A stretch of DNA of 64,000 nt from assembly GCA_020632535.1 (NCBI GenBank), contig JACKFJ010000002.1, forward strand, positions 190,331 through 254,330. The letters run 5' to 3'. The notes beneath the pieces are model-generated. The model ran no database searches and was not told the origin of the DNA. It saw nothing but the letters and a program-made list of their open reading frames with translations. Of this stretch, positions 1 through 30,700 are shown piece by piece. The DNA is from Candidatus Omnitrophota bacterium. Lineage in GTDB: Bacteria > Omnitrophota > Gorgyraeia > Zapsychrales > JANLHA01. The translations under genes and the position numbers were made by a program. Each line of letters opens with the position of its first letter. Position 1 is the stretch's first letter.

Positions 1-520
1 CACATAAGCTCGGCCAAAAATCACCCACAATCCTAAGATTTGTGGAACGGAAAGTTTGCTCAACATTTTAACGTTGGTAATAAATCCAGCAATTGCAGTT
101 TTAGCTAAAGCTCCTGCAACGGCTTTCAAGATTAAACCAACGCCCGCCAAAATAACAATCGCCGGGAAGATATACGGAAGAACCGCGCTCACGCCCGCTG
201 CGGCAAAGATCGAAAGCGGAACTATCGAAGCGGCAACTGGTAAGTTAAAGATACCAAACACCACCATTGCCGCTCCGACAGACGGTCTTAATCCTTCACG
301 CAAAATATTGACAAACATTGTGCGACGTTTTTCGGTGGTAACAAAAGCATGTTTCACATGTGCGGAAAGTGCAGCTACTACAACTAGCCCAACCGCAGCT
401 ACTAACACGGCCACTAAACCAAGTGTTGAAATAGCAACCACATCGATTGTCGCGGCCACGGCCATGGCCGGGGTCGACACTGTTAACGCAACAATGCCGA
501 CCCCGATAGGACCGACCTTA
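1..520 (-). other. Polytopic hydrophobic segment, in frame with the giant ORF and running off the window edge
   Basis: The translation reads ...LAKLAKVGPIGVGIVALTVSTPAMAVAATIDVVAISTLGLVAVLVAAVGLVVVAALSAHVKHAFVTTEKRRTMFVNILREGLRPSVGAAMVVFGIFNLPVAASIVPLSIFAAAGVSAVLPYIFPAIVILAGVGLILKAVAGALAKTAIAGFITNVKMLSKLSVPQILGLWVIFGRAYV. It contains at least 4-5 TM-like helices. It may be the C-terminal part of the giant protein or a separate membrane protein (see findings). Confidence 0.5.
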
Positions 521-3500
521 GCTAATTTAGCTAAGTTGTAACTTTGACGCTGTTGTGTAGCACGGAACGCCTTTGTCTGTAATTGCTTTAAGGAGAAGCT
601 CGCGTACGCTTGAGTATTCATTCTCGTTGCGAAGCTCAACCCACGTCCCACTAAGGCCGTTGCGGCGATAAATCTTCCCTTTGTGGTTAAAGACAAGGAA
701 GAGAAGCGATTTACCACTTGCGCGCTCTTTGGCTGAGCCAAAGACACAATCACAACGTGGAACATCGATAAGATACTTGAATTCGATGTTGTCATACGTT
801 TTTCCTGTTTCGACGATACGGGTATTAAGTGTAACCATTGTAGACCTCCTGTTTGAAGGTGATTATTTACGTTATTAGATTTACCAACAAAAATACCCCA
901 AACGGCTTTGGCCACATTGGCTAAGCTGTTTAGGGTACGGGTGTTCACTTTCGAATTTAAGGTAATAACAGAAGTAACGGCAGATTTGGCTTGGGAAGGA
1001 GTTGCAGAAGCCACTAAGCTATTACTGGAGTTGAGCTCACTACGTGCCAAATGATTGGCAATGAGCTTAGAAACAATGACAGTCACAAAGCCTGTAGCAA
1101 AGAAATAGGCTTGCGCTGCGATGTTCTTGACCAAGAAGCCAAGATCGAGGAGTGATTTATACAGACTCTTGTTGCCAGAGAAACTATTTTCTACGTTTGT
1201 GGTATTATTGCGTTTCTTTTGTTCTCTGACAGGTGAAGAGGAAGCTTTAATGATTATTGAAGAAACACGAATAGCTCCGGCTGTTTTGCCCTCTCTTGAG
1301 GAAACCCACAACCCGAGAACTGCAGAAGACGCTTTAATGCTGCGTCCAAGTATGTTGTTACTTGTATTTATAGCAGATGCCGCACGAACAGCGGACAGTC
1401 TCACCAATTCTCCTTCAGACACATAACTCACATCGAAGGTACCGGCTAAGACATCTATTACTGCATTATATTCAGATCTAATTGCGCGACCCAAGACTAC
1501 GAGGATCAACGCTAATTTCTTGAGCAACGTCAATCCTGCACGCACCTCAAGAACCTTAACAACTTGAATTGTGTTATCATTAGTTCTTACACTTCTAGAA
1601 CCTTTGACAACGACATAATTCGCATCGTCTTTCGAATTGCTACTTACTTTGTTTCCTTTACTGCTTTGATCAGCCATTTTCACAGCTAAAGCAGCAACAA
1701 CATCAGAACGAATACTTCTACTTCTGCTACGGACTACATTTACAGTATGTACAACACTTTGTGAAGCAACCTTCAATACAACACTTACTTTTACTGCGTA
1801 TTCACGGATCAGATCCAAAACATTCTGGAATAATCCGCTTGCTTCTACCTTAGTTCCGGCAGTCACACTGCTTGCACCTCTCGATGCTTCAGGCAACACT
1901 CCGAGAACCACGTTCAACGAACTACTGCTATTTGTTTCTACTACCTTACGAATCGATTCAATACCAGATTTGGCTATATTAACCACAACCTTGGCAACTT
2001 CCCCGAACAAACCGGGCACCAAAATGGCGGCAAAAGCACCAAAACCAATATTTCGACTCACAGAACGGATACTGCTGTTACGTACTTCTGTTTCTTTTGT
2101 TACTTTGCTGCTCTTTACAATACGTGATGCATTTACTTCAACTACGGTATTTCTTGTCCTCTCTGTCTCTACCGCTTCCGAAGCCTTTGAGGAAAGGCTG
2201 GAAGCTGTCAGCGGCGTCGGGCTCAGACCGGTAGAGGCGAATCGAGTCGTCCCCTGCTTGTCTGCTCCCGCATTTCTATTTAAAACAGTGTTTTGATTAT
2301 CTGGTTTTGCATATGAACTTGCATACAAATCCGCTGCGCTATGAAAGACTTTTGCTGAAGCCAAAACGATAGCTGTAGGCGCTTTTGGACCCGTATTGCC
2401 GCCCGTATTACCGTTGCCTGTGTTAGGATCGGGCGGAAGATTTGAAGATGTTGGTCCCGGTAAATTAGGCGCACTTATCGGAATGGCTTTCTGCGAATTT
2501 TTATCCTCAGAATGCTCACCGCTATCAAAAGGTATTCCCGGATTAGTTACAGCCAAGCTAATAAAGAATGTTGGCGGTAATTGCATAGTTGGCGGAGCCA
2601 ATGGAGCCGGAACAGGAATGGCTGGAGTCAAAATAGGCGTTAAAGTCGGCACTTCAATTGTGCCAACGTTTGCATTGCCCTCAACAGCAGGTTTGGCAGA
2701 AAGCGCAATGAATTCTTTGATTTGTTCAGCGCGAGAAATATCTTTCTTCTTATCAGCATCGCGATAGCGAACGGTCGTAGCGGCTTGATCAACAACAATT
2801 ACCAAGCCTTGTTTAATTTGATCAGGCGTATAGGTAATATCTTTGCCGAGGCTAGAGATAAAGCCGCCCGAAACTAAAGCAACAAAGATGCCTTTCTTAG
2901 AAAATTCTACAAATTTCTCTATAGAGTCTAGGCTTGTCAAAACAGCTTCTGGACCAGAGAGAATAATAAGAGAAGATGGTAACTTGACTAAAGCTTTTTC
3001 GGCTTTATCTGTATAGTAATCGCGAGCTTCTTCGGGGCTAAGCGCAGAAGATGAAGCCACGAAAACTGAACCAACAGATTCAACAGCAGAAGATCCTTTT
3101 GTACTGCCGCGCTTTTCATTGATGCCAACTTTATACTTAGCATAAATTTCTTGCGCTAACTGCTGCTTGGTTGCTTCAAAACTTTGAGCCTCAGCAAAAA
3201 TCACATCATATCGATCGCTTGTATATAGCTTGACAAAATTCCCACCAGTTGTCGTCAAACCTAACGGAGCGTGCTGTGTTAATTTGAGAAGCTCTAAAGC
3301 ATGAAAAGGTGCCAAATCCCCTTCACTCGTGTGGGCAAAATCTCGGGTATCAACAATACTGATTAAAATACGCGGATTAAGATCATTAACCGTCTTGAAG
3401 TTCGCTTCAATCGCATCAGCAAATTCACCAAACAATTGTAAAACTTGATCCGGGTTATAACCGTTAATCGGAATAGCAACCAAACCTTCTTCAGGCGGAG

Positions 3501-24500: not shown

Positions 24501-27500
24501 CACCAGCAAGCAATACTCTCTGGCGCAAAACCATCCCAGCCATGTTAAAAACATTTCCATCTTTCCCGGCAAATAATGTTTGTTTAAGATTTTTATCTGT
24601 TGAAATCGTTTGCTCAACATTAGTCCCGAACTGATTAATCTTGGAGTCGCGAATAATAAGATTAGCGTTTGCAAAACCTCTTCCATCGCTTGTCCTGTCA
24701 TACCCCATCATAAAAGATTGTGAGTTTAAAAATGGTTGTGCGCCACCAGAAAAGAGTGCGATGCGATCCGCCGGCGCTATACCAATCGCTGCCGCGGCTG
24801 ATGGAGCTAATGTTGCCGTCATTCTATAAACAAAATCTCGAATGCCTTCTGTGTTAAATAACGTTGCATTTTGCGAATTGGCAAGCTGGCCAACAGCCAT
24901 AACCTGATTCAATGGTGCCAATGCTCCAACCAAATTGACCAAGTCATCAGACGCGCCCATATTCTTAAAAGCTACGGAAGCATCTGCTCCAGCCTTAACC
25001 AACGCCATACCTGCTTCAAAGTTTTTTGCTTGCGAATTATTGACCGGAAGATCTAATTGAGTACTAAAATTCTGAAGATTAAATTGCGGGTCTTGCATAA
25101 AACGAAACTTTAACACAGTTAGAACATCTTTATCATCAACTTTACCGTCACTAAAGCCGGCTAAAAGCGGAATATTCCGAAAGGCAATATCTGTTTGAAA
25201 ACCATTGTTTAACTTGCCCTCTATAATAGAAGAAGCAAACATGCGATTAAAGATCATCGTCCCACCACCGACAACCGGAAGAACTGCTTGAAGAAGATCT
25301 GCTTTTTTAGGAATGCTTAAAAGCATGCCTAATCCTTGTCCGTCACCCAGCGCTGCGACAGCATCTTGATAAGCCTTATAATACCGTGCAGGTGCATTTG
25401 GTAATTTTTCAACAAGAGACTTATAACCTTCCCACGAAATTGTTACCGCTTTAATAAAGGAAATGGCGGTATCAATTTGATCAGCGCTCTTTCCTTCGCT
25501 GGCTAACTGTGCTCGGGCTGTTGCTTCGTCATTCGAAGTAAACTTGCCTTGAGTATTTGCAAGAAGCGTTTTAAACTCTTTGCTCTCTTCCCCGGTGAAA
25601 ACCAATTCAGCGCCTTTGCTTACTAAAAATTCTCCAAATTTTTGAGCATCAGATTTACCGATTCCCCAATAATCAATATCGCTCTGGCTAAAATTTGCTT
25701 TTGTAAATTGCACATTGCGCCACGAAGCCTCACCCTCGCCGTTGCGACTACCATAATCGACCGTTGCCTTAAAGCGATCTGACCAACCTTGCCCTCTAGC
25801 ATCATAATCATAGACCATCGGATTTTCCGACGTGCTGTGCCCAAACATCTTAAACGTCGTGTTGTCTTGTTCCATTGTTCTCACCGGACGATAAACAAAA
25901 CCTAAAGTATCACGGAAGAACACAACATCTTCAGGATCTGTGATTTTGCTCGAAACCATATATTCAAGCGCGCCCTTAACGTTTGCCAAAATTCCGCCAG
26001 AATTATAAAGATCAGGTCTTAAAAATCCGCCGGCAAGATTGGTATTAAACGTTTCAATCCAATAGTTATTTGCCCGCGCTCTATAATTGTTATCAAAAAC
26101 CGCAAGCCGTAAACCAATATCTTCTTTGCTCGCTCCCTGCGCGCGCATTGTTTTTATAATATCGTTGCGCTGTAAAGTTGTTTGCAATGAAAATCCTGTC
26201 GCCCGACTCCACTCATCCATAAACGCGGAAGCCTTCACAACACCCGGCGTGAAACTACTGCTATACGTATTTATTGCCTTTCCGCTTGCATCGTATTGGC
26301 CTTGTTCCTTCCAACCAATTTCACCCTGCGGTAACATACCAAAAAGATTATTCGGAGCGATACTTTTACCAAGGCTCACAAGTGACTCTTGAATACCATC
26401 AAGAAAATAATTTTGTTTTTGTGCCGCTTTTTCACCGCTAAACATTCCGCCATCTACCGTCAAACTGGCACTCTCAGAATCTAATGCGGAATCTTTAGCC
26501 AACCCAACACCAACAGCTGTTAATAAAAAGATTCCCATGCGCACTTTAGCAATATCGCTTGCGCTCGGCGGCTTGTTCGGGTCTTTGTACAAATGCTTTT
26601 CGGCTTTATCAACAACCATCGCGATTGCGGTACCAAATGAGTTTTGCGTACTAAGCCGAAAGAATTCCTCTTTGAAATCAATTTTCTTAGCAAACTTAAA
26701 TTTACCATCAGCAGCGTCAAATCTAATACTCCCATCCATCAAGGAAACTTCTTTTGTGCGACCAAGATCATCGATGTAAACAAATATCCCTGTTAAATTT
26801 CCTTTCTCATCTTTGTTTTCTTTAAGTAAGTTGACCTCTGGATGATATCCCAATGTCCCATTAAAGTTGTGATACAAAAGTCCAGCCAATGCACTGCCGA
26901 ACTCACCCGCTGCTTGCGACGCCAAAGTGTTGGCGCCAAAATTCTTTTTGTCTAGCTTTGACATAAGTTCACGAACAACCACACTTCCAACAACTCCAAT
27001 CAAACGACCTGTGACATTCGCATTTAATTTATCAATCGATTGCGAAAACGTATCCGCAATAAACCCTTCGTTGTATATCGACGCATCCAAAATATTCTTT
27101 TTTACGATATCGAACGAAGAATTTTTGTACGCATCAGTGGTGACATCAATCCCGGCATCAATATCCCACATTCTTGTCAAGTTAATTGCGCTCTCTGCCT
27201 CTTGTTTCGCGATATCCTTTCCTTCACGTCCCAACCCTAAAGTCTTTTTAGCTTCTTCACCAAAAAATTCAGCCGCGCCGACCAAGGCGTATTCCGCCGC
27301 GGCCGATGTCGCAATCCCAATTAAGGCCTGCTTTAACATCGGGTTCATGTTCGCACCCAATTGCTTATCTAAAAGTTTTGCTAATTTAACTTTGACATAA
27401 CCATTAATTAAGCCAATCCCTAAACTGCTCGGAAGTTTTTTAACAGCCTGATCCCATGTCAACAAAGGACCGCTCTCGCGCGCGAACATTTTCTTTAAAA

Positions 27501-29169
27501 ATTTCATCATCGGGCTTAACTTAGCAACTTCCTTACCGGCTTGAGCAACATCCATTGAGGCTTGGCCTAAAAGAGTCGTTCCCAAATCTATTCCAAAACT
27601 GCTCGCCAAATTTGTCGTCCAATTACCAAGCGAATCAAAACTATATTGCAGCATACTCACATCACCAAAACTTAAAACGCCGCTAAAAGCTTCACCCGTC
27701 AATAATTCAGACTGATTTAGAAAAACATCTTTAGTATCAAGCAGTGTCTGCGAAACATCACTAGCGCCGGTAACCCAAAGACTATCCATCGAATCAAGAC
27801 CTTGCGAGGCTACTTCAAGACGCCCCGCATCACCCCATCCCTCATAAGCCGCTTCAGTAGCTAAATTGCCAGTAGCGGAAAATGAATCTGCCAATGAACT
27901 GGCCGCGCCTTCGCCCAATTGAGTAAACCCGATTGACATTGCAATGTTTAAAATAAAAGCCGTGTCAGAACTACATGCTCCTTCAGAAACACAAAGCGCA
28001 GTTAAACTACCAGCAAGATCTGATGCCCCCATGGCAATAACACCCTTCATCAAAGAATTCGCCATAGCCTTTCCTGCCGCATCGCCGACTAACCCAGCAC
28101 CAGCAAAATAAGCACCCACAAAAAGCATTCCGATTTTAAGAACAAAACCAAAAAAGCTATCTCCGTCATCTTCCAAGAAAACCAATCTCTCGCCCGATCG
28201 ATCAACCCATTTATTACCCCAAACGAAAGCTTGCGCACTTTCCGATATTGTTTCAAAAGCAACATTTTGATTTTCAACTTTTGGAGCAAGAACAAAACCA
28301 CTTAAGTCTTTAATAAATTCATCGGCCGGCAAAATCTGTGATTTGCCGATATCCGTAAAGTAAACCTTGCCCTCATCGATCGCGTGAACCGTCACAAAAT
28401 GTTCAGATCCATAATTCGCGATAAAAGGTGTGGTGAGTTTTAAAACATCCGCCGGCTTAACCTTCATCGCCGCAAGTTGCAAACCATACCCCTTAACAAC
28501 TTGATCGATTGCATAAAGCGACGTTTTAAGTTTGGTTTCTCCCGGCCGCACAATGTCATTTAAAAGATCAATCGCCAAAGTCGCAACCGACAACTCTTCA
28601 AGATTGGTCACGATGCCGCGACTTAACAAAAGATCACGTAGTGAATAAACACCGCAATTGAGCGGATGAATGTTGGGATTGCTCAGCCACGCGTCAACCA
28701 AAGCCATTTGTCCTTGACTCACATCAACTTTAGAAATAACCCGAACACCATGTTGACCACTCGAGCCATCTTTGGCTGAAACACCAGAAAGGCTCAATTC
28801 AAGACTTGCGTTTTTCTGATAAGCGACTTTGTTAAGAATGTCATGAATTCCGAGAGCCAAACGAGCAGAAACAATTCTTTCGGCGGCAGAATCTTTTTCA
28901 ACAATTTTTTGTTGCGGATTTGTGTTGCCCCAGAGAACGGAAGGATTGTAATTAAAAGCCCAACTAACTTGATCAGGTATAAAAACTAAAAGCACGATTG
29001 CAGCAACAACACGCAACCATGCTTTGAAACGGCTATGAAATGGCACATACGGCGATCCTTCAGATTGGACATTATCAGTAATAGTAATACTAGTATCTGA
29101 TAATATAAGATCGTCTATGTGGGTTTGTGGGTTCATATTATACTGTATATGGTTTTTTGCTTGCCACAT
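1..29169 (-). CDS. Giant multidomain membrane-anchored protein, at least 9,712 codons in the window. The 3' end (C-terminus) lies beyond the left edge.
   Basis: I translated the minus strand by hand in the frame whose codons start at positions divisible by 3. It gave stop-free, protein-like sequence everywhere sampled: 29136-25620, 22080-21300, 18300-16740, 15120-14940, 13800-11640, 10680-10440, 7860-7380 and 6120-1. Every minus-strand ORF the track reports between 839 and 29136 is in one other frame (start mod 3 = 2) and none is in this frame. That is expected if this frame is a single ORF with no in-window stop. Candidate starts are ATG 29169 (longest ORF) and ATG 29136 (MNPQTHIDDLILSD...). 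Neither has a clear Shine-Dalgarno sequence. Confidence 0.85.
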   Translation of the reverse strand, partial: MWQAKNHIQYNMNPQTHIDDLILSDTSITITDNVQSEGSPYVPFHSRFKAWLRVVAAIVLLVFIPDQVSWAFNYNPSVLWGNTNPQQKIVEKDSAAERIVSARLALGIHDILNKVAYQKNASLELSLSGVSAKDGSSGQHGVRVISKVDVSQGQMALVDAWLSNPNIHPLNCGVYSLRDLLLSRGIVTNLEELSVATLAIDLLNDIVRPGETKLKTSLYAIDQVVKGYGLQLAAMKVKPADVLKLTTPFIANYGSEHFVTVHAIDEGKVYFTDIGKSQILPADEFIKDLSGFVLAPKVENQNVAFETISESAQAFVWGNKWVDRSGERLVFLEDDGDSFFGFVLKIGMLFVGAYFAGAGLVGDAAGKAMANSLMKGVIAMGASDLAGSLTALCVSEGACSSDTAFILNIAMSIGFTQLGEGAASSLADSFSATGNLATEAAYEGWGDAGRLEVASQGLDSMDSLWVTGASDVSQTLLDTKDVFLNQSELLTGEAFSGVLSFGDVSMLQYSFDSLGNWTTNLASSFGIDLGTTLLGQASMDVAQAGKEVAKLSPMMKFLKKMFARESGPLLTWDQAVKKLPSSLGIGLINGYVKVKLAKLLDKQLGANMNPMLKQALIGIATSAAAEYALVGAAEFFGEEAKKTLGLGREGKDIAKQEAESAINLTRMWDIDAGIDVTTDAYKNSSFDIVKKNILDASIYNEGFIADTFSQSIDKLNANVTGRLIGVVGSVVVRELMSKLDKKNFGANTLASQAAGEFGSALAGLLYHNFNGTLGYHPEVNLLKENKDEKGNLTGIFVYIDDLGRTKEVSLMDGSIRFDAADGKFKFAKKIDFKEEFFRLSTQNSFGTAIAMVVDKAEKHLYKDPNKPPSASDIAKVRMGIFLLTAVGVGLAKDSALDSESASLTVDGGMFSGEKAAQKQNYFLDGIQESLVSLGKSIAPNNLFGMLPQGEIGWKEQGQYDASGKAINTYSSSFTPGVVKASAFMDEWSRATGFSLQTTLQRNDIIKTMRAQGASKEDIGLRLAVFDNNYRARANNYWIETFNTNLAGGFLRPDLYNSGGILANVKGALEYMVSSKITDPEDVVFFRDTLGFVYRPVRTMEQDNTTFKMFGHSTSENPMVYDYDARGQGWSDRFKATVDYGSRNGEGEASWRNVQFTKANFSQSDIDYWGIGKSDAQKFGEFLVSKGAELVFTGEESKEFKTLLANTQGKFTSNDEATARAQLASEGKSADQIDTAISFIKAVTISWEGYKSLVEKLPNAPARYYKAYQDAVAALGDGQGLGMLLSIPKKADLLQAVLPVVGGGTMIFNRMFASSIIEGKLNNGFQTDIAFRNIPLLAGFSDGKVDDKDVLTVLKFRFMQDPQFNLQNFSTQLDLPVNNSQAKNFEAGMALVKAGADASVAFKNMGASDDLVNLVGALAPLNQVMAVGQLANSQNATLFNTEGIRDFVYRMTATLAPSAAAAIGIAPADRIALFSGGAQPFLNSQSFMMGYDRTSDGRGFANANLIIRDSKINQFGTNVEQTISTDKNLKQTLFAGKDGNVFNMAGMVLRQRVLLAGGATILDGTGGVFGYGKYLDDPNVAAKGFAKKMYAGAVDFSKDRSQKENSDITSLLSNINNIDTFFSASTPGDISKGKISIAGFGKDLKNSLNSEASTMNITLGEDGSLVNYSFKGYLQSASADVVNRFNLNPVAQVFYDRQKSAEGAKAMWTPTVFAGLGMPSQDLLLVNPNTGLLDISMPGTQVPMTEQGAVLNHGVLFANGTPGLVPSSQAIVATLKSKENFVENIPGQVGVSGTSNASIVIGAAKSTTKESVRDLEARLIIPGTIMREGAIVMSDKGTLIMPLDGGKGVVYDAIVSTDKSSIDHNGANVVSFNDVSYAIALSNDKIVKGFDGKVTGGAILGAAQIKWNKGAGAYAALAELKTGPQDQQRLLLAQGIDVNQLISGTYYAGQAAIKDGQITFTPQEKQSIPVLSLTNKGSLQGYTDQKVWDLLFAFAKAKNPAEHEAVLNTLSAALGKSSSSNEKPATTSTDKITLVGTDMPFFNLAQGKLSVALNIDSGTLSPMLDQAFSENRVIFNKAPVQLVLPAPEGGAMLLMANSSRSGDMTLNKTSKDGRTVIDFMPVNKGEGGLTAFGLLGKGGTHEGKVDAQLFLTAFAKEDGSGSMGIKGGSLVALTGQNKDFEAGQDSYVRTGAKGTSLENMQNLKIGALNVEKGGKIAFLGTEGLLYNPQSQEALGLKDKKADKKSKDGEKVTGTTVNRALWNIAEDTFAVGEDVNQALRTRSPKGMKYSASQLAIYADFNSLFAVNLQAPGSIYFAEGRQIRNAAKTDPLTFSMELKGKEGTFVKQRVNFTDVINQNRLAAIGFSANGSCLFGNIDGNFRSKGNFSDNKNGLKRNFHNMDIAGRAFADSYGALQYRMVKADGNVSVEGDMYASSSGVLADGREMNQTHKMYAGLPGRSGKVFVKHLDDAGLYLLLDKNGAVVKDRNGKPVYEHREDANMDAKDLRLVNRLSNKMNYTIDGITDLYGQATRYYSVNGKVMSLDSNDLDARDRRLMPTIDRKDIFVLNGELVDGRTLTDDQKKSAKSLDADNTYLVGKTVVSGTENLDARDLRHAKALKINPSEGAERPYIGQALLVSGAGWMDSLMPSSGGVGGGEKAVVRTDSGVETSFTQYGHLANLTIAKNMPLVFGEFKTIAGGTTLVQNGLTIFNAKMDASGRVVAGTDTAVPVGAKIDYVNVLRQGGKVGEYKYDEVHQNFVSTLKFDSNYGLGGYATDLKAIDAYKFTSAGTKEQGFVGRDLNGQAIFLSQANPTHEAICPTCKTPNGVTAFVTLKLIGTDYSNFKIERLSPFAVDSKGSAVAGGFYADSQNAGGLVFLPAGQSAKETYSAKGADGKAVTRTVKYTATEKGISSPELLQINGVDIKEYAAKQVVKSGTTLKSGEQVISQRLDGIAQGKAFYTVTIGNKQQEVSVGVDLVEHSMAGSDKAKVETIAFKKPTMTIATQFGEVEVELKAAGGTLEQTNKVVVTQALKNAVIKELTAKGNKTEEIDLTNLNATLDDRGIIFAGVAIKKVVDTAVGEWQKTAGGAAVGIAPKSAASAPFVISQEYNQLVFDGKTMREKEDTYAIADLGRGLVGAGYQLLADARKLNANYNFDPEYRATVDGYQKAGDAMIAEAIYNSPRLVGSLDLMGNNLGNLSQTITGHFVANLASGILPDSWANTAYDWGNEGFKNYSGNRLGQVSATEFMTDVYMSAALVIPGVAPSLFKFGAPSTSGLLRSSAIWGGVAGGGDWAIQYFNHPNDINWTEVAVVTGGALFGYAALRGASQAIQVKVLGNLQVAKAIVPSEGVAANIAKGAVGGFDGAEGALMANAAMKALDFSFPTTRAIFAGNVAKIESISGISNFGFVKHVVLPAALDGVLVDGVGTAYLITAAQHAADPTKFQTNGVLDFGTVGTNFTSNFVSVGLPVGVFSMSARVLSSPLAAQAFEKSGIGVRAYNFAVLKEWNIFKHEGHAALVAKVASTRSAAKADLLAARLAGTGTGSPLPVLSVSREIAVDSVKAYKLAQANLLKAETSLYSSALGFSRVAQPFAGGLGYTAFGNVIENTFQVANSKDHKTFSFGDNMISTRVLGNFALGAGFASIPMLTGSLAARGWRVNPGAAGAVGGAVIFPTSKYIEGKFSGDTYTTDDYIRFVLLGAASGGVLAKAAQGGLRRGQDSVFINRIFMGKDAAALQVNKYGLVNASLFGGGTNLIAGLANEIYVSKDYSLNSDSLKKIGINVAIGSAGASAILVSGRALAWAPDKSSGLAKAIGTIEETGRVRSVAEVLTTPFVNTTPLKKVGNYAVRWAGYPVAGAFIGGAIGGVNDKLAGNNFWGQGMAVGAGQGAYVGGIFALMTTAVPLNKYGADISKAITKVYDNPALMTMTRGGVTTEALRKDADLLKYSVFEGAKKWAAVAVSFEAANSVIESGINKLKGEDSTLKVKMRVWDPVKGAFYTEEDAQKAGVQPVREYALLSREGLMTLAFSGMAAPQSGYFMHSGIGFGMKQPGIVNEMKGRVSSVDMAMAQSGLATKAIAGVYNMINPAKTSEFMYGIRKFQTTQLGRNVAFWDGTFYMAGATAAIHKGAGLAGFDENGAVAQALGWIGFVGLPSKKFNDTGLVMNKVNNMAFTNTVAQRYNIKLSAAELGNRDKVGLITKEVSAELQKGGLTDAQAKKLETEKTILDMFASTLGVTDRVRSAEFMSQDLATTISVQNSAYQAAGGEINQVRGDFLRFTDLFTQLSKTQDVAGRNRVINEFIKTNYAGANAISPEHQRKFEEDAKKVLGFGEKETGPTRTALAEGDVKTHVENLAKVETQLDSQIALSVKKFQDAVGDGSFKDTIDVFATAQGPRTQSDFAQRLAQFEHTVAKSIGTRAGVKDLSGADLALVGDMAINRANWFKSAEIGKNETAAKVDAARTSNSSFVTEVENIVKSAGSSTDAQIQISKLIEFNANFVGPVRPGTLRTSEGLLATAQEVVKSKMYDVALNNGKAEKPAALSALPEFSNLSKTFLALAQMKDKVTTVSQIAEKQENLEAADKFIDVLQGVMKDPTLARTYFAHPYSRNATTYEEVVGAYSGTRKSLFENNGIDGMAWSASQRKVQENTSTLKDRENVLVGGVNTLNSKIATLESQISSVTKEIERRQSRVRMGNSIQRAQSIAALQSKKAELTDLISQQSKLSGELSSLSGELEVVTAKLNLSQGLQDRMAKATTLAEQDKFFGKEAVTAEAARNLNILVSILKQSDTARSSEELTGDFGARHSKVKVAVKAMEAELKSLRAEEKVLQAQADSKSADASEYQALAQQVREQIKFLEVALSGSLGSREGAQSFEKRMASAKTAEEQNDFLMERTLTPEQKQHQEEFRAIVKEVNDLSGDRLLSGLDTELALRMAEAKRNSLQADISLLVASNQGRRYESSPLTEAQAHEFILTGRLRETAQYMQLSRQAVQAQATVRKPEVSLWDITNYTAWRETPDGIVSTVRSVPAIYREAKTRYENNRSSREIAQIAALEHRLFDNLVKQLPSETIAKFKDMSVERNAQGEWSIATTSQDQKTLEYTSQLNDLVKNAVQNKGFNQASQDTYIGLTNALKQLKSPGELVYFGTDAKKTSFVAPIMAVMAVSMGRDGVRNLKGATLVAPGSSQIGQTLEGVMSVSETGWVPNENGKGKKLAKGHEGNGYTTYTITRAGQKDIQVLVLDSSNTNKYNASEVAGEIKKSDIIITARQAYEAILLSAQTEHEGAIGSSGKSGYTELANALGRDRIGIFDEAHQYPNEPGMIFGDLAKKIEDVKRVEGVKTVFRFLFDEAGAKGISQYMKELQNNPEFLNSSERNQEAKFNPKNFVDGQFREWKARTTLKDKSRANEVEITSEEQSMLNGVADALTMTRGGLQKGYDIMRTVVDTAVQDPKHPDYNREMELVVPTVEGKGVANMRWSAWHIAVARQIVPRLLTPEAFKSSAPVRSVNDVMNLVDSAVRISPSSVRMSALQVVSNTSYRVLLTGTPLMAAAFAQLHGVKMPAESTVDLQNALIDRNALSYVQNISRVNAAGAGHEVVSSHVAGARLKHDLLVGYGSEKYELGQVLRGMVDQISTNGKLNNDVVIMVGDKAEVYKAGEATVEQVLARRPSEEITSGLARNYFQTNVEKSLMILDKANLEGFDTSIKPIDSASSAKLTKIKNDTTLSVEQKAQQSKDVRDASDMMQYVAIFDKANEALHATHFEQVMARARGVFGEGEYFYPLGSAGQVNGKPVKLANNRSIVFLDKDAAKATVLEAGDREVLRDRLQANETQAGLDARHSALRDVLQENGANYFRNMLEIARKNKSGDEGVILEMLKKYQSDVNVDDSKYLSEEGVSLSLLNAQVKRIEGLVKKAIGPLYDRIEDSQVRQYADSAMKITSQIKPFETGTSDGKVGGTEATNLLPKLTLHEATQEIARMFTATELASRVTDGSNGRVEQYYESAPTVAAKAGNLQLAARLRTDLRARHDFAEFMAGYGLTSEGGKALANIIQITQNPIPQSATTGAFNGIKNTWNSTSYVLENGSFSDAMSASKQYFPGSSSANNTQKQVMEVLQELAQDQALWNDRPSVTNYLGSRNIVMPEVKAGQKAVDQSPVMNSWFDDIAKRIDAKIGANHKTMVEQKVKEEDVKKAVYQYFGLTPEQIQHFQGVYSFLQGSALYKRTAVEPVMPQHIMGVLSAFQNDLPRGILVLTQQVATDDQYRQSLARVTSRLEGNLAGGSEGALRQAVQEANIEAIAQGLVTLAKQGRSKDTDEKAKATKRLAQIKDQISVRYGVRSANTTALHAEIDEIYAAVQGDESLKATDVVQLMQQKIAGPSLYKEFSINTESTKAEEARIITDRLQSISNADFNAVTEAIKTQLQSPIPTIPATIAPSMQWIYNFVLTDAIDIKSDQGNALTPQREQEARLARLQQVQIIRGERKNENQEFSYDHFKATAPALNQYIVKQAGGLIEDLAQGLTVSARVSPSQKPVEQPIRLVSLDDTRRLLQLGGGSAEHTSRVLNATASVLGEELAMAMPLNYYSDRDKMLVYLNAARDRIGEDNNLSLKDEQRFDKALTIAGRKPSLEKPSAYFQRKLLSTMPAGQGRDYLTYLLTGDTFEYQTDSDARVARLRQSSPYALRNVIPVVRSRFVDSKTVTDMKAHASLVKGWGSLTAIIEKHDASLVSLKPIARSAVVSLMANALTKALNDVTDEPYLDSRNFVRVQSAFDQKLKDAGISDEARRELSSTIFGLNGQELELAKANLDVMRFNKALSHAKVAESDLPSVSVYEVVSPNYTDRQPELFSVDSPYLVNLTVAKVKEMAVASGISEEQAFVKILGTPELLKASTDQYVSALRTSLIDKLGKELKQATEGKSAEEVAIINNEFENKVAQLEENLAKLQPAQATYVAQAQKLVATTSGQEQAKEVYRNVASALTNLDNDGHIAELIKLAYTNADMSKEQEQAVTLVSTVLNNQLVSNNAWVYTDAGTMYRHGEALAEAQQISKDGPFIVKVNPRAVNRYSGRLDATLLHHDRGHEVAGHLTLDAISKMNPEQARPYLEAFAQFINDDGQFFADLSDLQMAELNVQKDDALSEVQKLQSQITALRAEKVVDFEAVKNLRDQITAQHNKVLGSVLRFGDNKTANEFFATYVGLKFWLHNSGLVQGHQKVANAEVFESLSMNDMLPVRSLFGRSDFAFINELASMPYSRFRDILSQRRPDIAIQSDKHQETIAQSTGKEIVRDAVGNVVEIKPRTTTAREQQQIAGGGPDDLLKAASQIPPSSSAVVVAGGKDPELVAGGPDKANSILRLASRPVAVGGPKKVVGSAVLESNSPAKPSNASGAQKVTKKAGSFNAPKPTAKPGAESGEVTFEGGARKLASKAVEADKEGKGKGRPGDGDFHPWANHYTSQAGTAPAKVDTSFSSLNILALNTSGNFAKGMNVSSVAATAVYGMAGSSYNSQAQASSSSSSLNSLTSSANAVLQNSGVSNLNNGGFADSVNSVSSSAATQAIVSNNIGSQPVLNGGLVAPVGGTNDGSINEVYAGSGMASNTMTQNINGNNSTSLPSATANLNATSPTRTFVNNTTPLNFGMPANANLATPSAAKDFSSHVLGFSNLLPPMAPQIILPISFNGLKSPAVGVLPNIEKSTSALASTSPVGSMIQASSQIVERGPVDATFASEENLEGILKISQVRDLLNGDAQFIKNIIDQSFGRPVFVRLDNVAPENNDDLVSLVKELGEENSVYIFNPQFDGLQKVTQEGALQDVAIAEAGSGLVLVDSNFKPWSASVAVRQFAANSVLDPRIILFNVDRDKVFEVVNLTVKDVLNVDQELIGLSSQDREEAAKRFGQIKGEKYVLRATPQTAQAYAGKIIQTADNKFVLMLNADGTIPTVKSTNNILSGVSSEESENVIQSLGILLAGAVAVEIEKQTDQALPIIKVPASLALVTQTVKWAELLTESNTRLAAELTAQSTTKLAAVQAPVKVKAPTSLAERVANAFLKKPAAAISKPAVVQTPVIAKPATVAVVSTSQARKISSTVGSVFVASSSVAEGQELVNFYLEKAEKKFADKATGVIPLITVTAASALVYDSATLKKAVQFAGNNSVYIVEAGKIYTVDAQGNISQSGTAEDVLKGGLVLVALEDQNAKVRFLDAADAAKRKVALSPEDILKNAIALSVNASGAPVAAPIVAPSVPAIVPTMPTLTPALPLSVSSPLVANGIMDREQGIAQLVKTLPNDQNLWLAVLDVDKIGVLNTLAGGLTGNGKEKVNVKLGVMLSAIAEIAKSYGGYAFRLYTGDEVAVVLPSSFSTQEEVANILGEMKSRIDPLDVYFSAGVVKANDAGVNEGNDVHQWFGAMLVAANQRLQFAKDNGGDAVSFEAAEIVHTHDKGIETSKPGVEIALKDSLAQRLANGPRVLSEAYAGQSIYSDQIESEYGVLKQEAFHGLIANALTAGKEFIIVKVSPQFSPDGRIADFLATKTSAERSDLTVLFDEHVRFKAINSVFGYKGGDQAILSIVDSIEKSLQQLSIPNVIQARAPPEEGLVAIPINGYNPDQVLQLFGEFADAIEANFKTVNDLNPRILISIVDTRDFAHTSEGDLAPFHALELLKLTQHAPLGLTTTGGNFVKLYTSDRYDVIFAEAQSFEATKQQLAQEIYAKYKVGINEKRGSTKGSSAVESVGSVFVASSSALSPEEARDYYTDKAEKALVKLPSSLIILSGPEAVLTSLDSIEKFVEFSKKGIFVALVSGGFISSLGKDITYTPDQIKQGLVIVVDQAATTVRYRDADKKKDISRAEQIKEFIALSAKPAVEGNANVGTIEVPTLTPILTPAIPVPAPLAPPTMQLPPTFFISLAVTNPGIPFDSGEHSEDKNSQKAIPISAPNLPGPTSSNLPPDPNTGNGNTGGNTGPKAPTAIVLASAKVFHSAADLYASSYAKPDNQNTVLNRNAGADKQGTTRFASTGLSPTPLTASSLSSKASEAVETERTRNTVVEVNASRIVKSSKVTKETEVRNSSIRSVSRNIGFGAFAAILVPGLFGEVAKVVVNIAKSGIESIRKVVETNSSSSLNVVLGVLPEASRGASSVTAGTKVEASGLFQNVLDLIREYAVKVSVVLKVASQSVVHTVNVVRSRSRSIRSDVVAALAVKMADQSSKGNKVSSNSKDDANYVVVKGSRSVRTNDNTIQVVKVLEVRAGLTLLKKLALILVVLGRAIRSEYNAVIDVLAGTFDVSYVSEGELVRLSAVRAASAINTSNNILGRSIKASSAVLGLWVSSREGKTAGAIRVSSIIIKASSSPVREQKKRNNTTNVENSFSGNKSLYKSLLDLGFLVKNIAAQAYFFATGFVTVIVSKLIANHLARSELNSSNSLVASATPSQAKSAVTSVITLNSKVNTRTLNSLANVAKAVWGIFVGKSNNVNNHLQTGGLQWLHLIPVSSKQEKRMTTSNSSILSMFHVVIVSLAQPKSAQVVNRFSSLSLTTKGRFIAATALVGRGLSFATRMNTQAYASFSLKQLQTKAFRATQQRQSYNLAKLAKVGPIGVGIVALTVSTPAMAVAATIDVVAISTLGLVAVLVAAVGLVVVAALSAHVKHAFVTTEKRRTMFVNILREGLRPSVGAAMVVFGIFNLPVAASIVPLSIFAAAGVSAVLPYIFPAIVILAGVGLILKAVAGALAKTAIAGFITNVKMLSKLSVPQILGLWVIFGRAYV
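527..838 (-). CDS. Hypothetical 103-aa protein, embedded out of frame in the open giant reading frame
   Basis: The track ORF reads MVTLNTRIVETGKTYDNIEFKYLIDVPRCDCVFGSAKERASGK.... A canonical SD precedes it (ACAGGAGGTCTACA-ATG). Third-codon positions are T/C-rich like the verified genes here, whereas the giant frame becomes A/G-rich at third positions across this stretch. It is the only minus-strand track ORF in this frame (start mod 3 = 1) within the 29 kb. Confidence 0.5.
   Translation of the reverse strand: MVTLNTRIVETGKTYDNIEFKYLIDVPRCDCVFGSAKERASGKSLLFLVFNHKGKIYRRNGLSGTWVELRNENEYSSVRELLLKAITDKGVPCYTTASKLQLS
2698..3075 (-). repeat. Internal duplicated protein module, copy 1 (~126 aa), followed by a Pro-rich linker
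   Basis: The module reads VGSVFVASSSALSPEEARDYYTDKAEKALVKLPSSLIILSGPEAVLTSLDSIEKFVEFSKKGIFVALVSGGFISSLGKDITYTPDQIKQGLVIVVDQAATTVRYRDADKKKDISRAEQIKEFIALS. It is followed by TPILTPAIPVPAPLAPPTMQLPP (about 2569-2640). It aligns with the copy at 4579-4992. Confidence 0.65.
3385..3650 (-). other. Degenerate GGDEF-like domain 2 of the giant protein
   Basis: LTVLFDEHVRFKAINSVFGYKGGDQAILSIVDSIEKSL matches the FKxiNDxxGHxxGDxxL half of GGDEF. ...ARAPPEEGLVAIPINGYNPDQVLQLFGEFADAI has PPEEG in the position of GGDEF, so the domain is probably inactive. Confidence 0.4.
4100..4390 (-). other. Degenerate GGDEF-like (nucleotidyl cyclase fold) domain 1 of the giant protein
   Basis: The translation reads NLWLAVLDVDKIGVLNTLAGG...VNVKLGVMLSAIAEIAKSYGGYAFRLYTGDEVAVVLPSSFSTQEEVANILGEMKSRI. 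This parallels the GGDEF layout (xxLDiDhFKxiND ... aRyGGDEFxvllp ... a-helix). TGDEV (4210-4224) sits in place of GGDEF. Confidence 0.45.
4579..4992 (-). repeat. Internal duplicated protein module, copy 2 (~138 aa), followed by a Pro-rich linker
   Basis: The module reads VGSVFVASSSVAEGQELVNFYLEKAEKKFADKATGVIPLITVTAASALVYDSATLKKAVQFAGNNSVYIVEAGKIYTVDAQGNISQSGTAEDVLKGGLVLVALEDQNAKVRFLDAADAAKRKVALSPEDILKNAIALS. It is followed by PVAAPIVAPSVPAIVPTMPTLTPALP (about 4465-4560). Confidence 0.65.
12540..13800 (-). other. SNF2/DEAH-box helicase-like motif set inside the giant protein
   Basis: A Walker-A-like FGTDAKKTSF lies at 13747-13767. Motif II, IGIFDEAHQY, has DEAH at 13267-13278. An SNF2 motif-III-like SYRVLLTGTPL lies at 12568-12588. 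The spacing between motifs II and III is about 230 aa, far longer than in canonical SNF2. The P-loop is non-canonical (K in place of the second G). Confidence 0.4.
14340..15250 (-). other. Coiled-coil-like segment of the giant protein
   Basis: Sampled translation is rich in Q, E, K, L and S with a heptad-like character: MAEAKRNSLQADISLLVASN, IQRAQSIAALQSKKAELTDLISQQSKLSGELSSLSGELEVVTAKLNLSQGLQDRMA. Confidence 0.4.
16740..19900 (-). other. Gly/Ala-rich hydrophobic block of the giant protein, with possible membrane-embedded or glycine-zipper segments
   Basis: Sampled translation includes GNFALGAGFASIPMLTGSLAARGW, NPGAAGAVGGAVIF, WAGYPVAGAFIGGAIGGVND, GQGMAVGAGQGAYVGGIFALMTTAV and EVAVVTGGALFGYAALRG. 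Small-xxx-small motifs recur in hydrophobic runs. Confidence 0.4.
28282..28719 (-). other. Peptidase C39-like (papain-fold cysteine peptidase) domain of the giant protein
   Basis: The translation reads ...NIHPLNCGVYSLRDLLLSRG...TTPFIANYGSEHFVTVHAIDEGKVYFTDIGK...FIKDLSGFVLA. The NCG (Cys161) and EHFVTV (His246) spacing and context match the C39 / C39-like catalytic Cys and His motifs. Confidence 0.55.
28972..29025 (-). other. N-terminal transmembrane or signal-anchor segment of the giant protein
   Basis: Residues ~38-55 counted from ATG 29136 read KAWLRVVAAIVLLVFIPD. This is a hydrophobic stretch of about 18 aa preceded by basic residues. Confidence 0.6.
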
Positions 29170-29183
29170 AATGTCCAATCTGA
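29060..29183 (-). promoter_or_regulatory. Perfect 16-bp inverted repeat pair enclosing the start codons of the giant gene
   Basis: TCAGATTGGACATTAT lies at 29060-29075 and ATAATGTCCAATCTGA at 29168-29183, with a 92-nt spacer. The spacer contains ATG 29136. ATG 29169 overlaps the upstream arm. The pair could be an mRNA stem or a pair of protein operator sites. Confidence 0.55.
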
Positions 29184-29198
29184 TATTGAGCGTGGCAA
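29168..29198 (-). promoter_or_regulatory. Weak candidate sigma70-like promoter overlapped by the motif
   Basis: On the minus strand, TTGCCA (29198-29193) is followed by a 19-nt spacer and CATTAT (29173-29168). The spacer is at the long limit and the -10 hexamer matches 4/6. Confidence 0.2.
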
Positions 29199-29353
29199 GA
29201 TGGAATTAATACAGCCTTGGGCTTGATGAAGGAATTGAAAATACGCCCAAAGAAGCTGTAAGTAAGAATATTTCTCAAAACGAATTGAGAATTGAAAACA
29301 AAAAAAATCAGGGTTTGCGTGTTTATTTTCACTTTTCCCATAAATTTTGAAAG

Positions 29354-29382
29354 ATTGTTGCTACGAAAATTTGCCTTGTCAA
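29354..29382 (-). promoter_or_regulatory. Candidate sigma70-like promoter for the giant gene
   Basis: On the minus strand, TTGACA (29382-29377) is followed by a 17-nt spacer and AACAAT (29359-29354). It lies about 220 nt upstream of ATG 29136. Confidence 0.25.
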
Positions 29383-29730
29383 CGTATTACGAGTATATCA
29401 TTTATATAATATAGCGCAAGTTCATGGCAAAAATATTTTATACTGTATCTTGTTGTTATCCAAATTGTTATGCGCGAATTAGAACTTTTTTTGATATTTT
29501 ATAAAAAATATTTTCAAAAACCATTTTTTTCACCAAAATTATCGTAAAAAATACACTATTTTTAAGCACAAAACATCTCAATAGATACACAAAAATACCA
29601 CATATAATTTGCGCACTTTTTTATCAATTAAAAAAATTTCCATGTCATTAAAAGCTTTCAAACTAATCAATTAATTTTTGCAAAATTACAACATCATTTT
29701 CATAAATTTTATGCAATAATAAAAATAAAA

Positions 29731-29766
29731 ATGTCCAATCTGACAAAAATATTCAGATTGGACATT
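29731..29766 (-). terminator. Intrinsic terminator after tadC, built from the recurring motif
   Basis: ATGTCCAATCTGA (29731-29743) and TCAGATTGGACAT (29754-29766) form a 13-bp perfect stem with a 10-nt loop. The stem begins 25 nt after the tadC stop. On the minus strand it is followed by TTTTTATTTTTATTATT. Confidence 0.7.
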
Positions 29767-29791
29767 AAAAGAACAGTATTGTGCCTAAAAA

Positions 29792-30682
29792 TTACTTTTT
29801 AACGCCGCCGCTTGCCATGCTTTGCATCGGATTCGTTTCAATAAACTGTAAGAAAATTGGACCAGCCACCAAAACACCGACAACAGGAAAAATGAAAAGC
29901 AAAAGAGGAACCAACAGTTTTATTGGAGCCTTCATGGCTAACTGTTCACCGCGGCGAAAACGCGCAAGACGCATATCTTCCGAAAGACGATTTAATGCTT
30001 CGGAAACCGACGTCCCCATCTTATCAGCCTGAATCAGGGTCCGAGAAAAACTAGCCATTTCCGGAATATCATATTTTTGCGCCATATCGCGCAAAGCATC
30101 ACGTCTTGTTTTACCGACATTGATTTCCTGCAAAAGAACATTAAGCTCACTGACCATGACCGATGGCGGAGACTTTTCAACAACCCATTTTAACGCCAAC
30201 ATAAAATCAAGGCCGGCATTAACGCAAAGCCCTAAAAGATCGATAGCATCAGGCATTTCCTTTGTCATAATCGCCTTCACACCCTTAATTTTTCCCTTAA
30301 GCCAATATTCCGGCGCCATATATCCAACAGCCAGCGACATCATAATCCAAAATGTCATCATGTCAGGCTTAACCATCGGGTAAGTCAAAACCAAAATTGC
30401 GACAATAAGGACTTCTTTAATAAGAAAAAACTCTTCCGGAGTAATCGGCACGTGCCCGACACTCAAATCCTTTAAAATTCTTTGACGAACAACGCCTTGG
30501 CAAAGAGGCTTATTGATCATCGCGATCCCGCGAATAATCGAAAAATTTGATTTCTTTGTTGCTTTTGGCAATTCATATCCAAAAGATTTTAAGGTCGGGC
30601 GGCTCTCCCACTCCGGCGGAAAAAATCCGAGAATAAAACTAAATCCCGCAACAAAACACAATGTTAAAATAAAATACAGCAT
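29792..30682 (-). CDS. tadC: Tad pilus inner-membrane platform protein TadC (T2SS F family)
   Basis: This is a 296-aa polytopic protein with a GspF/T2SSF-like core: MPDAIDLLGLCVNAGLDFMLALKWVV...EINVGKTRRDALRDMAQ...FSRTLIQADKMGTSVSEALNRLSEDMR...APIKLLVPLLLFIFP. It lies next to tadB. Confidence 0.8.
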   Translation of the reverse strand: MLYFILTLCFVAGFSFILGFFPPEWESRPTLKSFGYELPKATKKSNFSIIRGIAMINKPLCQGVVRQRILKDLSVGHVPITPEEFFLIKEVLIVAILVLTYPMVKPDMMTFWIMMSLAVGYMAPEYWLKGKIKGVKAIMTKEMPDAIDLLGLCVNAGLDFMLALKWVVEKSPPSVMVSELNVLLQEINVGKTRRDALRDMAQKYDIPEMASFSRTLIQADKMGTSVSEALNRLSEDMRLARFRRGEQLAMKAPIKLLVPLLLFIFPVVGVLVAGPIFLQFIETNPMQSMASGGVKK

Positions 30683-30700
30683 TTAAATGTTTTCTCCGTT

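Follow-up and report, generated by a model that had tools for sequence, protein, structure and literature searches.

Introduction

Giant open reading frames (ORFs) of more than 20 kb were described by Seymour et al. (2023) in 77 of 116 species of the Velamenicoccia and also in further classes of Omnitrophota, where they have only a small number of annotated domains and show poor conservation (PMC10066038). In Velamenicoccus archaeovorus the giant protein comprises 39,678 amino acids (aa) with 42 predicted membrane helices, its peptides are 3-fold higher in attached cells, and the Tad locus lies at chromosome positions 12,382-29,832 (PMC10066038). West-Roberts et al. (2023) reported giant genes of up to 85,804 aa, which encode an N-terminal C39 domain by signal peptides as well as diverged SecA-DEAD and GGDEF domains, which follow a conserved upstream cluster of gspD/E/F, rcpC, class III signal peptide and Rotamase_2 isomerase genes, and most of whose domains are predicted to lie outside the cell (10.1101/2023.11.21.568195). 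Nielsen & Lui (2026) described 916 proteins of at least 10,000 aa, reaching 147,155 aa, among them a 24-protein cluster of C39-only architecture and 137 of the 916 with no domain match, and classed 46% of the giants as 'TM-only' (transmembrane-only), read as having their bulk in the cytoplasm (10.64898/2026.06.07.730766). Here we analyse a 64-kb stretch of contig JACKFJ010000002.1 (64,000 nucleotides; hereafter the window), the left 29 kb of which hold the 5′ part of a giant gene on the minus strand, directly downstream of a Tad-like gene cluster.

We assign this gene to the known giant genes of Omnitrophota, which these tiny, host-dependent bacteria have beside a pilus-type secretion cluster, as a sequence-divergent new example and not as a new system. 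A preliminary description of the window had regarded a protein of this size as very rare in bacteria and its combination of parts as unusual; such sizes, parts and neighbours are common and published in Omnitrophota, and the implied novelty is withdrawn here (PMC10066038; 10.1101/2023.11.21.568195; 10.64898/2026.06.07.730766).

A single coding frame fills the left 29 kb of the window

Six-frame translation revealed that minus-strand frame 1 contains no TAA, TAG or TGA over window positions 1-29205 (9,735 codons), so that the frame is open independently of the genetic code. From base composition ~614 stops were expected in this frame (log10 P(none) = -275), the remaining five frames over the same DNA contain 319-938 stops each, and the next-longest open stretch anywhere in the window amounts to 1,238 aa. 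The preliminary description had proposed a single stop-free frame over 1-29169 from sampled stretches; the complete translation bears this out, with no stop in that interval and the frame open further, to 29205. It had also expected the protein to be longer than the window shows, which holds, as the frame is still open at position 1, the gene is cut by the window edge and the C-terminus lies beyond it. The frame was missing from the ORF track that had been supplied; an ORF-listing tool omits ORFs that run off a source end, and the track, if built in the same manner, would miss the giant frame because the frame runs off the end.

1-29136, minus strand: giant ORF, 5′ part only (no stops; codon usage; start aligned with relatives; relatives open and collinear)

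Three start candidates, TTG 29178, ATG 29169 and ATG 29136, lie at the beginning of the frame. A Met aligns with ATG 29136, and none with ATG 29169, in five of the six closest relatives (L001, L002, L003, L005 and L006 of the related loci described below), and the sixth (L004) has its Met one or two codons upstream of the ATG 29136 position. Because of the aligned Met in these five relatives, ATG 29136 is the most likely start, from which the predicted gene spans 9,712 codons in the window and continues past position 1. The earlier figure of 9,712 codons is thus kept when counted from ATG 29136, and the earlier gene end at 29169 is replaced. Residue numbers of the giant protein are nevertheless counted from ATG 29169 throughout (9,723 aa), and 11 should be subtracted from them for the likely start.

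A codon-usage log-likelihood, trained on gyrA, gyrB, dnaN, dnaA and other neighbours, scored the giant frame positively in each 3-kb tile (0.29-0.37 bits per codon) and every other frame negatively; over the last ~900 codons the score was weaker (0.03-0.17), yet positive and the best of the six frames. Neither direct or inverted DNA repeats of ≥30 bp nor real tandem arrays occur in window 1-29300, which makes a collapsed or mis-joined repeat, a worry that had accompanied the first description, unlikely. The left 29 kb are a single, real, uninterrupted and non-repetitive coding frame of at least 9,712 aa. With 29,136 nt and an open end at the window edge, the ORF exceeds the 20 kb used for giant ORFs, and within the window it stays short of the 10,000-aa line.

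The predicted head combines a membrane helix with a C39 peptidase domain

Fourteen database proteins match the first ~400 aa of the giant protein at 35-48% identity, 12 of them named Omnitrophota/Omnitrophica by their source and one Elusimicrobia, the remainder being nameless. When one genome per species (GTDB r232) was scanned, at least 86 stretches with N-terminal relatives emerged, of which 80 were kept; all locus counts given here refer to these 80 (L001-L080). Most of them lie in metagenome-assembled genomes titled Omnitrophota/Omnitrophica, the best match being 68-73% identical, and the others are mostly third-party annotation records labelled 'uncultured Planctomycetales', plus a few with other labels. 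Contigs labelled 'uncultured Planctomycetales' (L001, L003, L004, L006 and others) share the Tad-like cluster and the giant-gene head with contigs titled Omnitrophota, and we consider this label on the related contigs to be probably wrong.

In 75 of the 80 loci the giant frame continues without a stop to where the fetched DNA ends, over up to ~3,900 aa. Alignment across every locus is confined to the first ~420 aa; past aa ~600 no more than 11 of the 80 align, and beyond aa ~1,200 three do, at ~40% identity. L001-L003 are collinear with the giant to aa ~3,000 at 36-41% identity, compared with 77-86% for their TadB/TadC, indicating that the body of the giant diverges far faster than its neighbours. 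On these alignments, the ~420-aa head is the sole part conserved across the related genomes. It contains the following features:

28960-29025, minus strand: N-terminal hydrophobic helix KAWLRVVAAIVLLVFIPDQVSW, probable signal anchor (hydropathy, conservation, AlphaFold 2 (AF2) model)
28210-28722, minus strand: C39 cysteine peptidase domain (Pfam PF03412, triad, AF2, Foldseek)
28654-28656, 28399-28401 and 28351-28353, minus strand: Cys, His and Asp, respectively, of the C39 triad
27985-28155, minus strand: Gly/Ala-rich hydrophobic helices after the peptidase, aa 339-395, possible membrane segments (hydropathy, low-confidence AF2 helices)

A hydropathy peak at aa 49-70, flanked by basic residues on its N-terminal and by acidic residues on its C-terminal side, matches the TM anchor named in the preliminary description; this helix is the best-conserved N-terminal block and is a helix in the AF2 model too. 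A weaker hydrophobic helix follows at aa 873-891, and the Kyte-Doolittle scan gave one to three hydrophobic segments for the N-terminus. Pfam PF03412 (Peptidase_C39) matched aa 216-297 with 27.4 bits against a cut-off of 22, and the triad C172/H257/D273 is invariant in the alignment of the 14 protein relatives. Among the 80 genomic relatives and the window, the triad Cys is present in 81 of 81, His in 81 of 81 and Asp in 80 of 81, of which the counts for His and Asp alone are free of ascertainment bias, the catalytic Cys falling within one of the two scan patterns. AlphaFold run with the relatives' alignment modelled aa 90-320 at a predicted local distance difference test score (pLDDT) of 80-90, and a Foldseek search of this model against the PDB gave chains of PCAT1 as top matches (E 7e-5, probability 1.0); that alignment is long and its TM-score low, making the peptidase domain alone comparable. 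The Pfam match, the invariant Cys/His/Asp and the fit of the model to the PCAT1 structure agree with the C39-like peptidase that had first been noticed. We conclude that the head is a membrane helix joined to a C39 cysteine peptidase domain with an intact predicted catalytic triad.

The giant thus shares the fold and the Cys/His/Asp triad with the C39 domains of the bacteriocin/peptide ABC exporters PCAT1, ComA and LagD. By contrast, no ABC (ATP-binding cassette) transporter membrane domain or nucleotide-binding domain follows the C39 domain of the giant, and no genes for Gly-Gly leader peptides lie nearby. In addition, the C39 domain of the giant is preceded by a membrane helix and is therefore predicted to be periplasmic, whereas that of the exporters is cytoplasmic.

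The body of the giant protein

Pfam and NCBIfam, run on halves, 1,000-aa tiles and sub-tiles of the giant protein, returned only two signals, Peptidase_C39 and a partial GGDEF, and PDB sequence searches with both halves gave nothing significant. The protein is rich in Ala, Leu, Ser, Gly and Val and contains six Cys in 9,723 aa, one being the catalytic Cys of the C39 domain. A near absence of Cys is known also from giant secreted adhesins. Along the body, from the N-terminal side to the window edge, we distinguished the following features:

16720-19572, minus strand: Gly/Ala-rich, mildly hydrophobic region, aa ~3200-4150, with no known domain (composition, hydropathy; no Pfam match)
14500-15192, minus strand: heptad-periodic, Gly/Pro-poor, charged, coiled-coil-like stretch, aa ~4660-4890 (crude periodicity scan)
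12070-13899, minus strand: diverged superfamily 2 (SF2; DEAD/ResIII-type) ATPase-like module, aa ~5091-5700 (three distant relatives)
13744-13770, minus strand: Walker-A-like FGTDAKKTS
13261-13284, minus strand: DEAH (IFDEAHQY)
7582-7833, minus strand: second heptad-periodic stretch, aa ~7110-7200 (crude periodicity scan)
6070-7332, minus strand: Ser/Thr/Asn/Gly/Pro-rich low-complexity linker, aa ~7280-7700 (composition, sequence reading)
2593-4995, minus strand: sole internal duplication, ~160-aa modules at 4504-4995 and 2593-3078 (tile-against-tile BLASTP)
3970-4407, minus strand: GGDEF-like module 1, TGDEV for GGDEF (by eye; no Pfam match alone)
3295-3732, minus strand: GGDEF-like module 2, PPEEG for GGDEF (partial PF00990 match)
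1-2061, minus strand: basic C-terminal part at the window edge (hydropathy, composition)

The Gly-rich hydrophobic blocks and the coiled coil of the preliminary description are found again, the former as the Gly/Ala-rich hydrophobic region around aa ~3250-4000 and the latter as the heptad-periodic stretches at aa ~4660-4890 and ~7110-7200. Its helicase-like motif set and GGDEF-like domains fared less well. Searched by itself, the helicase-like region matched nothing in Pfam or the PDB, in the latter also as a profile, and a word-indexed homologue search of it returned no matches. Three relatives with 23-28% identity came from an exhaustive HMMER scan of 1.84 billion representatives; one of them matches ResIII (1.4e-8) and DEAD (5.2e-7), and the region is tentatively assigned to SF2 because of this one distant relative. 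The DEAH box is kept in all four aligned sequences (the giant and the three relatives), and Walker A, canonical in two of the three relatives (GTGAGKT, TGQGKT), is degenerate in the giant. AlphaFold without an alignment gave a pLDDT of 35 for the region. What stands of the motif set is therefore the DEAH box and an SF2 link through one relative, and what does not is a Walker A of canonical form (GxxGxGK[ST]) or a domain match for the region itself.

Two segments fit the GGDEF block pattern by eye, of which Pfam sees module 2 alone, and that partially. The PF00990 match at aa 8502-8546 covers profile positions 27-72 of 161 and reached 25.2 bits in a 1,000-aa tile and 18.9 bits alone, against a cut-off of 23.8; the features expected of a diguanylate cyclase, a match to PF00990 over its full length and the active-site motif GG[DE]EF, were not found, and a homologue search of the region gave no matches. 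The earlier GGDEF-like domains are retained as a partial match that falls below the cut-off when taken alone and whose signature motif is degenerate. The two modules lie between the copies of the duplication, the first duplicated module (aa 8059-8222) preceding GGDEF-like module 1 and the second (aa 8698-8859) coming after GGDEF-like module 2, with E-values of 2e-4 and 0.014 for the pair. Tile-against-tile BLASTP found no further internal protein repeats, and the giant protein is not a repeat protein.

Towards the window edge, aa 9040-9700 showed about five hydrophobic peaks at the stricter Kyte-Doolittle cut-off and several weaker ones. This basic C-terminal part has a net charge of +14 to +21 per 250 aa and is Ser/Asn/Arg/Val-rich by eye, and a scan for relatives of the last 724 aa of the giant frame found none. 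Window 1-2700, the last ~900 codons, is compositionally odd, and its longest plus-strand ORFs (8-538, 1670-2293 and 2345-2764) run antisense to the giant frame.

Putative regulatory elements around the 5′ end of the giant gene

A long spacer, of ~650 bp here and with a median of ~900 bp among the relatives, separates tadC from the giant gene. It contains a conserved promoter-like element and copies of the 13-mer CAGATTGGACATT, which occurs in six exact copies in the window where ~0.002 are expected:

29730-29766, minus strand: perfect 13-bp hairpin AATGTCCAATCTG-N11-CAGATTGGACATT with a U-rich tail, terminator-like, just after tadC
29391-29420, minus strand: sigma-70-like promoter with extended -10, TTGCGC-N16-TGaTATACT (alignment A3)
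29061-29182, minus strand: two inverted 13-mer copies bracketing the start codon
29061-29073 (plus), 29170-29182 (minus), 29730-29742 (minus), 29754-29766 (plus), 40695-40707 (plus) and 40764-40776 (plus): exact 13-mer copies
41176, 41627 and 41697: 13-mer near-copies

The hairpin after tadC has a predicted RNA fold of -19.3 kcal/mol (z -6.2), and the pair of inverted copies around the start codon one of -35.6 kcal/mol (z -5.2), the copy at 29061-29073 encoding N-V-Q-S-E of the giant protein. Two exact and three near copies lie in and before a gene of the Tad-like cluster for a 578-aa protein with a helix-turn-helix (HTH)-like N-terminus. In the 80 loci, 13-mer sites with ≤2 mismatches occur at 1.37 per kb in the 1.7 kb round the 5′ end of the giant gene, compared with 0.035 per kb elsewhere (~40-fold), and frequently form same-orientation arrays with ~16-35 nt spacing, which suits a binding site for a protein better than a role in RNA structure alone. 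The 13-mer looks like a dedicated regulatory site, an RNA switch being the less likely reading. An inverton formed by the 13-mer pairs is given low weight: in the window and in all five relatives aligned with it the promoter block has the same orientation, and no recombinase was identified.

The promoter-like element lies ~255 nt upstream of ATG 29136, and its pattern TTGCGC-N16-TGnTATACT recurs in 15 loci (e.g. L001 9688-9716), each time within the spacer and on the sense strand. Because a terminator-like hairpin follows tadC and a promoter-like element precedes the giant gene, the latter looks like a transcription unit of its own with a ~255-nt leader, and the 578-aa protein may be a candidate regulator of it. 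Neither the 13-mer nor promoter-like elements are mentioned in the West-Roberts preprint when it is searched for such terms. Rfam at the gathering threshold identified tRNA-Glu only.

The giant gene follows a Tad-like cluster near the probable replication origin

The genes upstream of the giant gene form a cluster with the following members:

29792-47643, minus strand: Tad-like cluster, resembling type IVc pilus and type II secretion system (T2SS) loci (Pfam/NCBIfam, pilin-like N-termini, synteny)
47647-48645: Rotamase_2 peptidyl-prolyl isomerase (PPIase), at the cluster end distal to the giant gene
44575-46803, minus strand: secretin with a C-terminal TonB_C domain
42402-44564, minus strand: MinD/CpaE-like domain fused to a TadA/CpaF-type ATPase
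39874-41610, minus strand: 578-aa protein with weak IS481-type HTH similarity at the N-terminus (E 0.007; no other family match)
31586-39594, minus strand: 11 consecutive ORFs with Flp/TadE-type class III signal peptide motifs, 49 to 1,238 aa (N-termini read)

Towards the giant gene the order is Rotamase_2 PPIase, RcpC/CpaB, secretin-TonB_C, CpaE-CpaF fusion, DUF192, the 578-aa protein, the 11 pilin-like ORFs and two T2SSF (TadB/TadC-like) proteins. The pilin-like ORFs, for whose class III signal peptide motif MFKFLRKMKGQSTLEY is an example, include a 412-aa and a Cys-rich 1,238-aa member. By eye (uncounted), the 1,238-aa and the 124-aa members are Cys-rich, compared with six Cys in the giant. 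No A24 prepilin peptidase gene was found in the window. We considered the C39 domain of the giant as a substitute prepilin peptidase and regard this as unlikely, the pilin-like leaders ending in a single Gly (K-G|QSTLEY) and not in Gly-Gly; a TadV gene could sit beyond the window. A PDB sequence search with the 578-aa protein gave nothing significant, and the protein was not seen in the related loci, whose 10-kb flanks are possibly too short.

Upstream of the giant gene in the 80 loci, a TadC-like protein is present in 59, a TadB-like one in 56, and the 1,238-aa, 124-aa and 412-aa proteins in 52, 50 and 38, respectively. The giant gene is linked in a fixed manner to the Tad-like cluster, and the upstream gspD/E/F-type, rcpC, class III signal peptide and Rotamase_2 genes that mark Omnitrophota giants, in a cluster of more than 10 genes, are all present.

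Farther upstream, the minus strand carries dnaA, dnaN, gyrB and gyrA and the plus strand yidC, parA and parB, and the GC skew switches sign near 59.5-60 kb. A probable replication origin lies at ~59450-60315, which is AT-rich and from which dnaA-dnaN-gyrB-gyrA and yidC-parA-parB diverge; DnaA boxes of the E. coli type show no clustering beside dnaA, and this call thus rests on the skew switch and the gene order. The giant gene is located ~29 kb from dnaA on the leading strand, co-directional with replication, and four housekeeping-type genes followed by the Tad-like cluster occupy the same strand between gyrA and the giant gene.

Discussion

The closest counterparts of the giant are the giant proteins of Omnitrophota ('Archaeovorins', V. 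archaeovorus LiM type), with which it shares the phylum (by its relatives), the N-terminal anchor and C39 domain, few domains and poor conservation and, putatively, further membrane helices, a helicase-type ATPase module and GGDEF-like modules. Giants of this group carry a C39 or S8 peptidase near the N-terminus, beside a signal or membrane segment, as the present one does with its C39 domain. Like theirs, its gene comes immediately after a Tad/T2SS-like cluster that encodes a secretin, an ATPase, two GspF/TadBC proteins, RcpC, many class III signal peptide proteins and a Rotamase_2 PPIase, and like the Tad locus of V. archaeovorus it is near the replication origin. Downstream of Omnitrophota giant genes one typically finds small PilZ genes together with genes for solute-binding proteins or glycoside hydrolases; here the 3′ end lies beyond the window. 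The domains that mark the Archaeovorin subtype were not found in the available sequence (Pfam E≤1), and with no dockerin/TSP3 Pfam matches and no internal repeats the giant does not fit the dockerin-type subtype. It resembles the C39-only cluster of Nielsen & Lui in having C39 as the sole solid Pfam domain of a protein of about 10,000 aa or longer, a likeness drawn at the level of architecture, for a truncated protein that also shows a weak GGDEF signal.

The upstream cluster has much in common with the Tad (Flp, type IVc) pili of Bdellovibrio-like predators, namely TadB/TadC, a TadA/CpaF ATPase fused to TadZ/CpaE, an RcpA-type secretin, RcpC and multiple ORFs with the Flp-like leader motif KGQS[TA]LEY. 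It differs from them in that the cluster contains no A24 prepilin peptidase, the secretin carries TonB_C, the pilin-like set, with its 412-aa and 1,238-aa members, is unusually large, and the giant gene follows the cluster. With LapA/MpIBP/SiiE and the giant adhesins of Chlorobium chlorochromatii, the giant shares the size class and the near absence of cysteine. Giant repeat adhesins consist of many tandem Ig-like repeats and exit via type I secretion, whereas the giant here is non-repetitive in both DNA and protein. A further likeness between the giant and such adhesins is a proposed role in the cell-cell contact of an epibiont (PMC10066038).

Taking these comparisons together, we consider it quite probable that the gene is an Omnitrophota giant gene whose product has a general role at the cell envelope, and most of this confidence concerns the identity, the individual mechanistic steps being far less certain. 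The N-terminal anchor and the C-terminal hydrophobic helices would insert the protein into the cell membrane, and, judged by how charges are distributed around the first helix, the N-terminus would be inside and the peptidase domain periplasmic. The C39 domain would probably cut the giant chain itself or a partner, and the giant may work with the Tad-like machine when host or prey cells are contacted, in line with the proposal made for V. archaeovorus. Since their canonical motifs are lost, the ATPase-like and GGDEF-like modules more likely serve in binding or as a scaffold than as enzymes, and the part of the chain that carries them probably stays cytoplasmic because such domains normally use cytoplasmic nucleotides.

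Several points weigh against this proposal. The role of the gene is read here from sequence alone, the topology of its product from a hydropathy scan only, and the placement in Omnitrophota from relatives some of which are labelled 'uncultured Planctomycetales'. SecA_DEAD (PF07517), reported for most giants, gave no match at E≤1. Other domains of the Archaeovorins (glycosyl transferase, glycoside hydrolase, methyltransferase, NUDIX, HEAT and TPR) are likewise absent, none of the carbohydrate-active, methyltransferase, HEAT/TPR or dockerin domains on which the published idea of cell-wall degradation draws being found in 9,712 aa (Pfam E≤1), and the missing C-terminal part could still carry glycosyl transferase, glycosyl hydrolase, methyltransferase, NUDIX or HEAT/TPR domains.

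The giant might alternatively be a mainly cytoplasmic scaffold tethered to the inner membrane, with the N-terminal loop and short C-terminal loops alone exposed. The ATPase-like and GGDEF-like modules are cytoplasmic domain types, no strong hydrophobic segment was found from aa ~900 to ~9000, and the 46% of giants classed as 'TM-only' by Nielsen & Lui were read in the same way; however, both modules are degenerate in their nucleotide-binding motifs and need not see nucleotides, published predictions put most domains outside, and the near absence of Cys is that of giant secreted adhesins, so that we regard such a scaffold as possible and yet somewhat unlikely. The strictly conserved triad, which argues for an active protease on the chain, would also suit a polyprotein precursor that is translated once and cut by C39 or other proteases into many proteins, leaving no ~9,700-aa protein in the cell. 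This possibility was raised by West-Roberts et al. (10.1101/2023.11.21.568195), and the body of unrelated modules split by low-complexity linkers is in keeping with it; against it, no conserved Gly-Gly cleavage sites were identified, exporter C39 domains cut leader peptides and not internal sites, and the peptidase is predicted on the outer face of the membrane, which would separate it from the bulk of the chain in the case of a cytoplasmic body. On balance we find a polyprotein unlikely.

Far less credence is due to explanations that deny the frame or place it in another class. The sequence may derive from a metagenome assembly, and a chimeric or collapsed contig or a pseudo-ORF might then be suspected; we reject such an artefact as extremely improbable, given no stops where 614 were expected, a uniform codon signal, the lack of repeats, collinearity with three independent assemblies over ~3,000 aa and the same open frame in 75 of 80 relatives. 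Size and the very low Cys content would also fit a giant repeat adhesin of the RTX/Bap type exported by type I secretion, or a nonribosomal peptide synthetase/polyketide synthase (NRPS/PKS) megasynthase. There are, however, no tandem domains or RTX repeats beyond one weak internal duplication, no type I secretion (ABC/MFP/TolC; MFP, membrane fusion protein) genes in the 35 kb upstream, and no condensation, adenylation, ketosynthase or carrier domains in Pfam, which leads us to reject both as hardly credible for the available sequence, a verdict that the missing C-terminal part alone could change.

The envelope role proposed above can be extended to a single dedicated system, made up of the Tad-like machine, the tethered C39 domain and the giant, in which the machine would export or display the giant, or fragments that its C39 domain cuts from it, onto host cells, with production switched by a regulator, which the 578-aa protein may be, at the CAGATTGGACATT sites round the promoter and the start codon. 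We offer this extension as a speculation that is itself rather improbable.

Much of the small Omnitrophota genome is taken up by giant genes, to which a part in attaching to other microbes, or in preying on them, has been ascribed. The giant described here is a sequence-novel member of this group, most of its body being without detectable relatives, and it leaves the picture of what bacteria can encode unchanged. It contributes testable points: the sole part common to related genomes is a membrane-anchored C39 domain with an intact triad, and the ATPase-like and GGDEF-like modules occur here without canonical motifs. In addition, the promoter-like element after a terminator-like hairpin and the recurrent 13-base motif point to a dedicated regulatory input.

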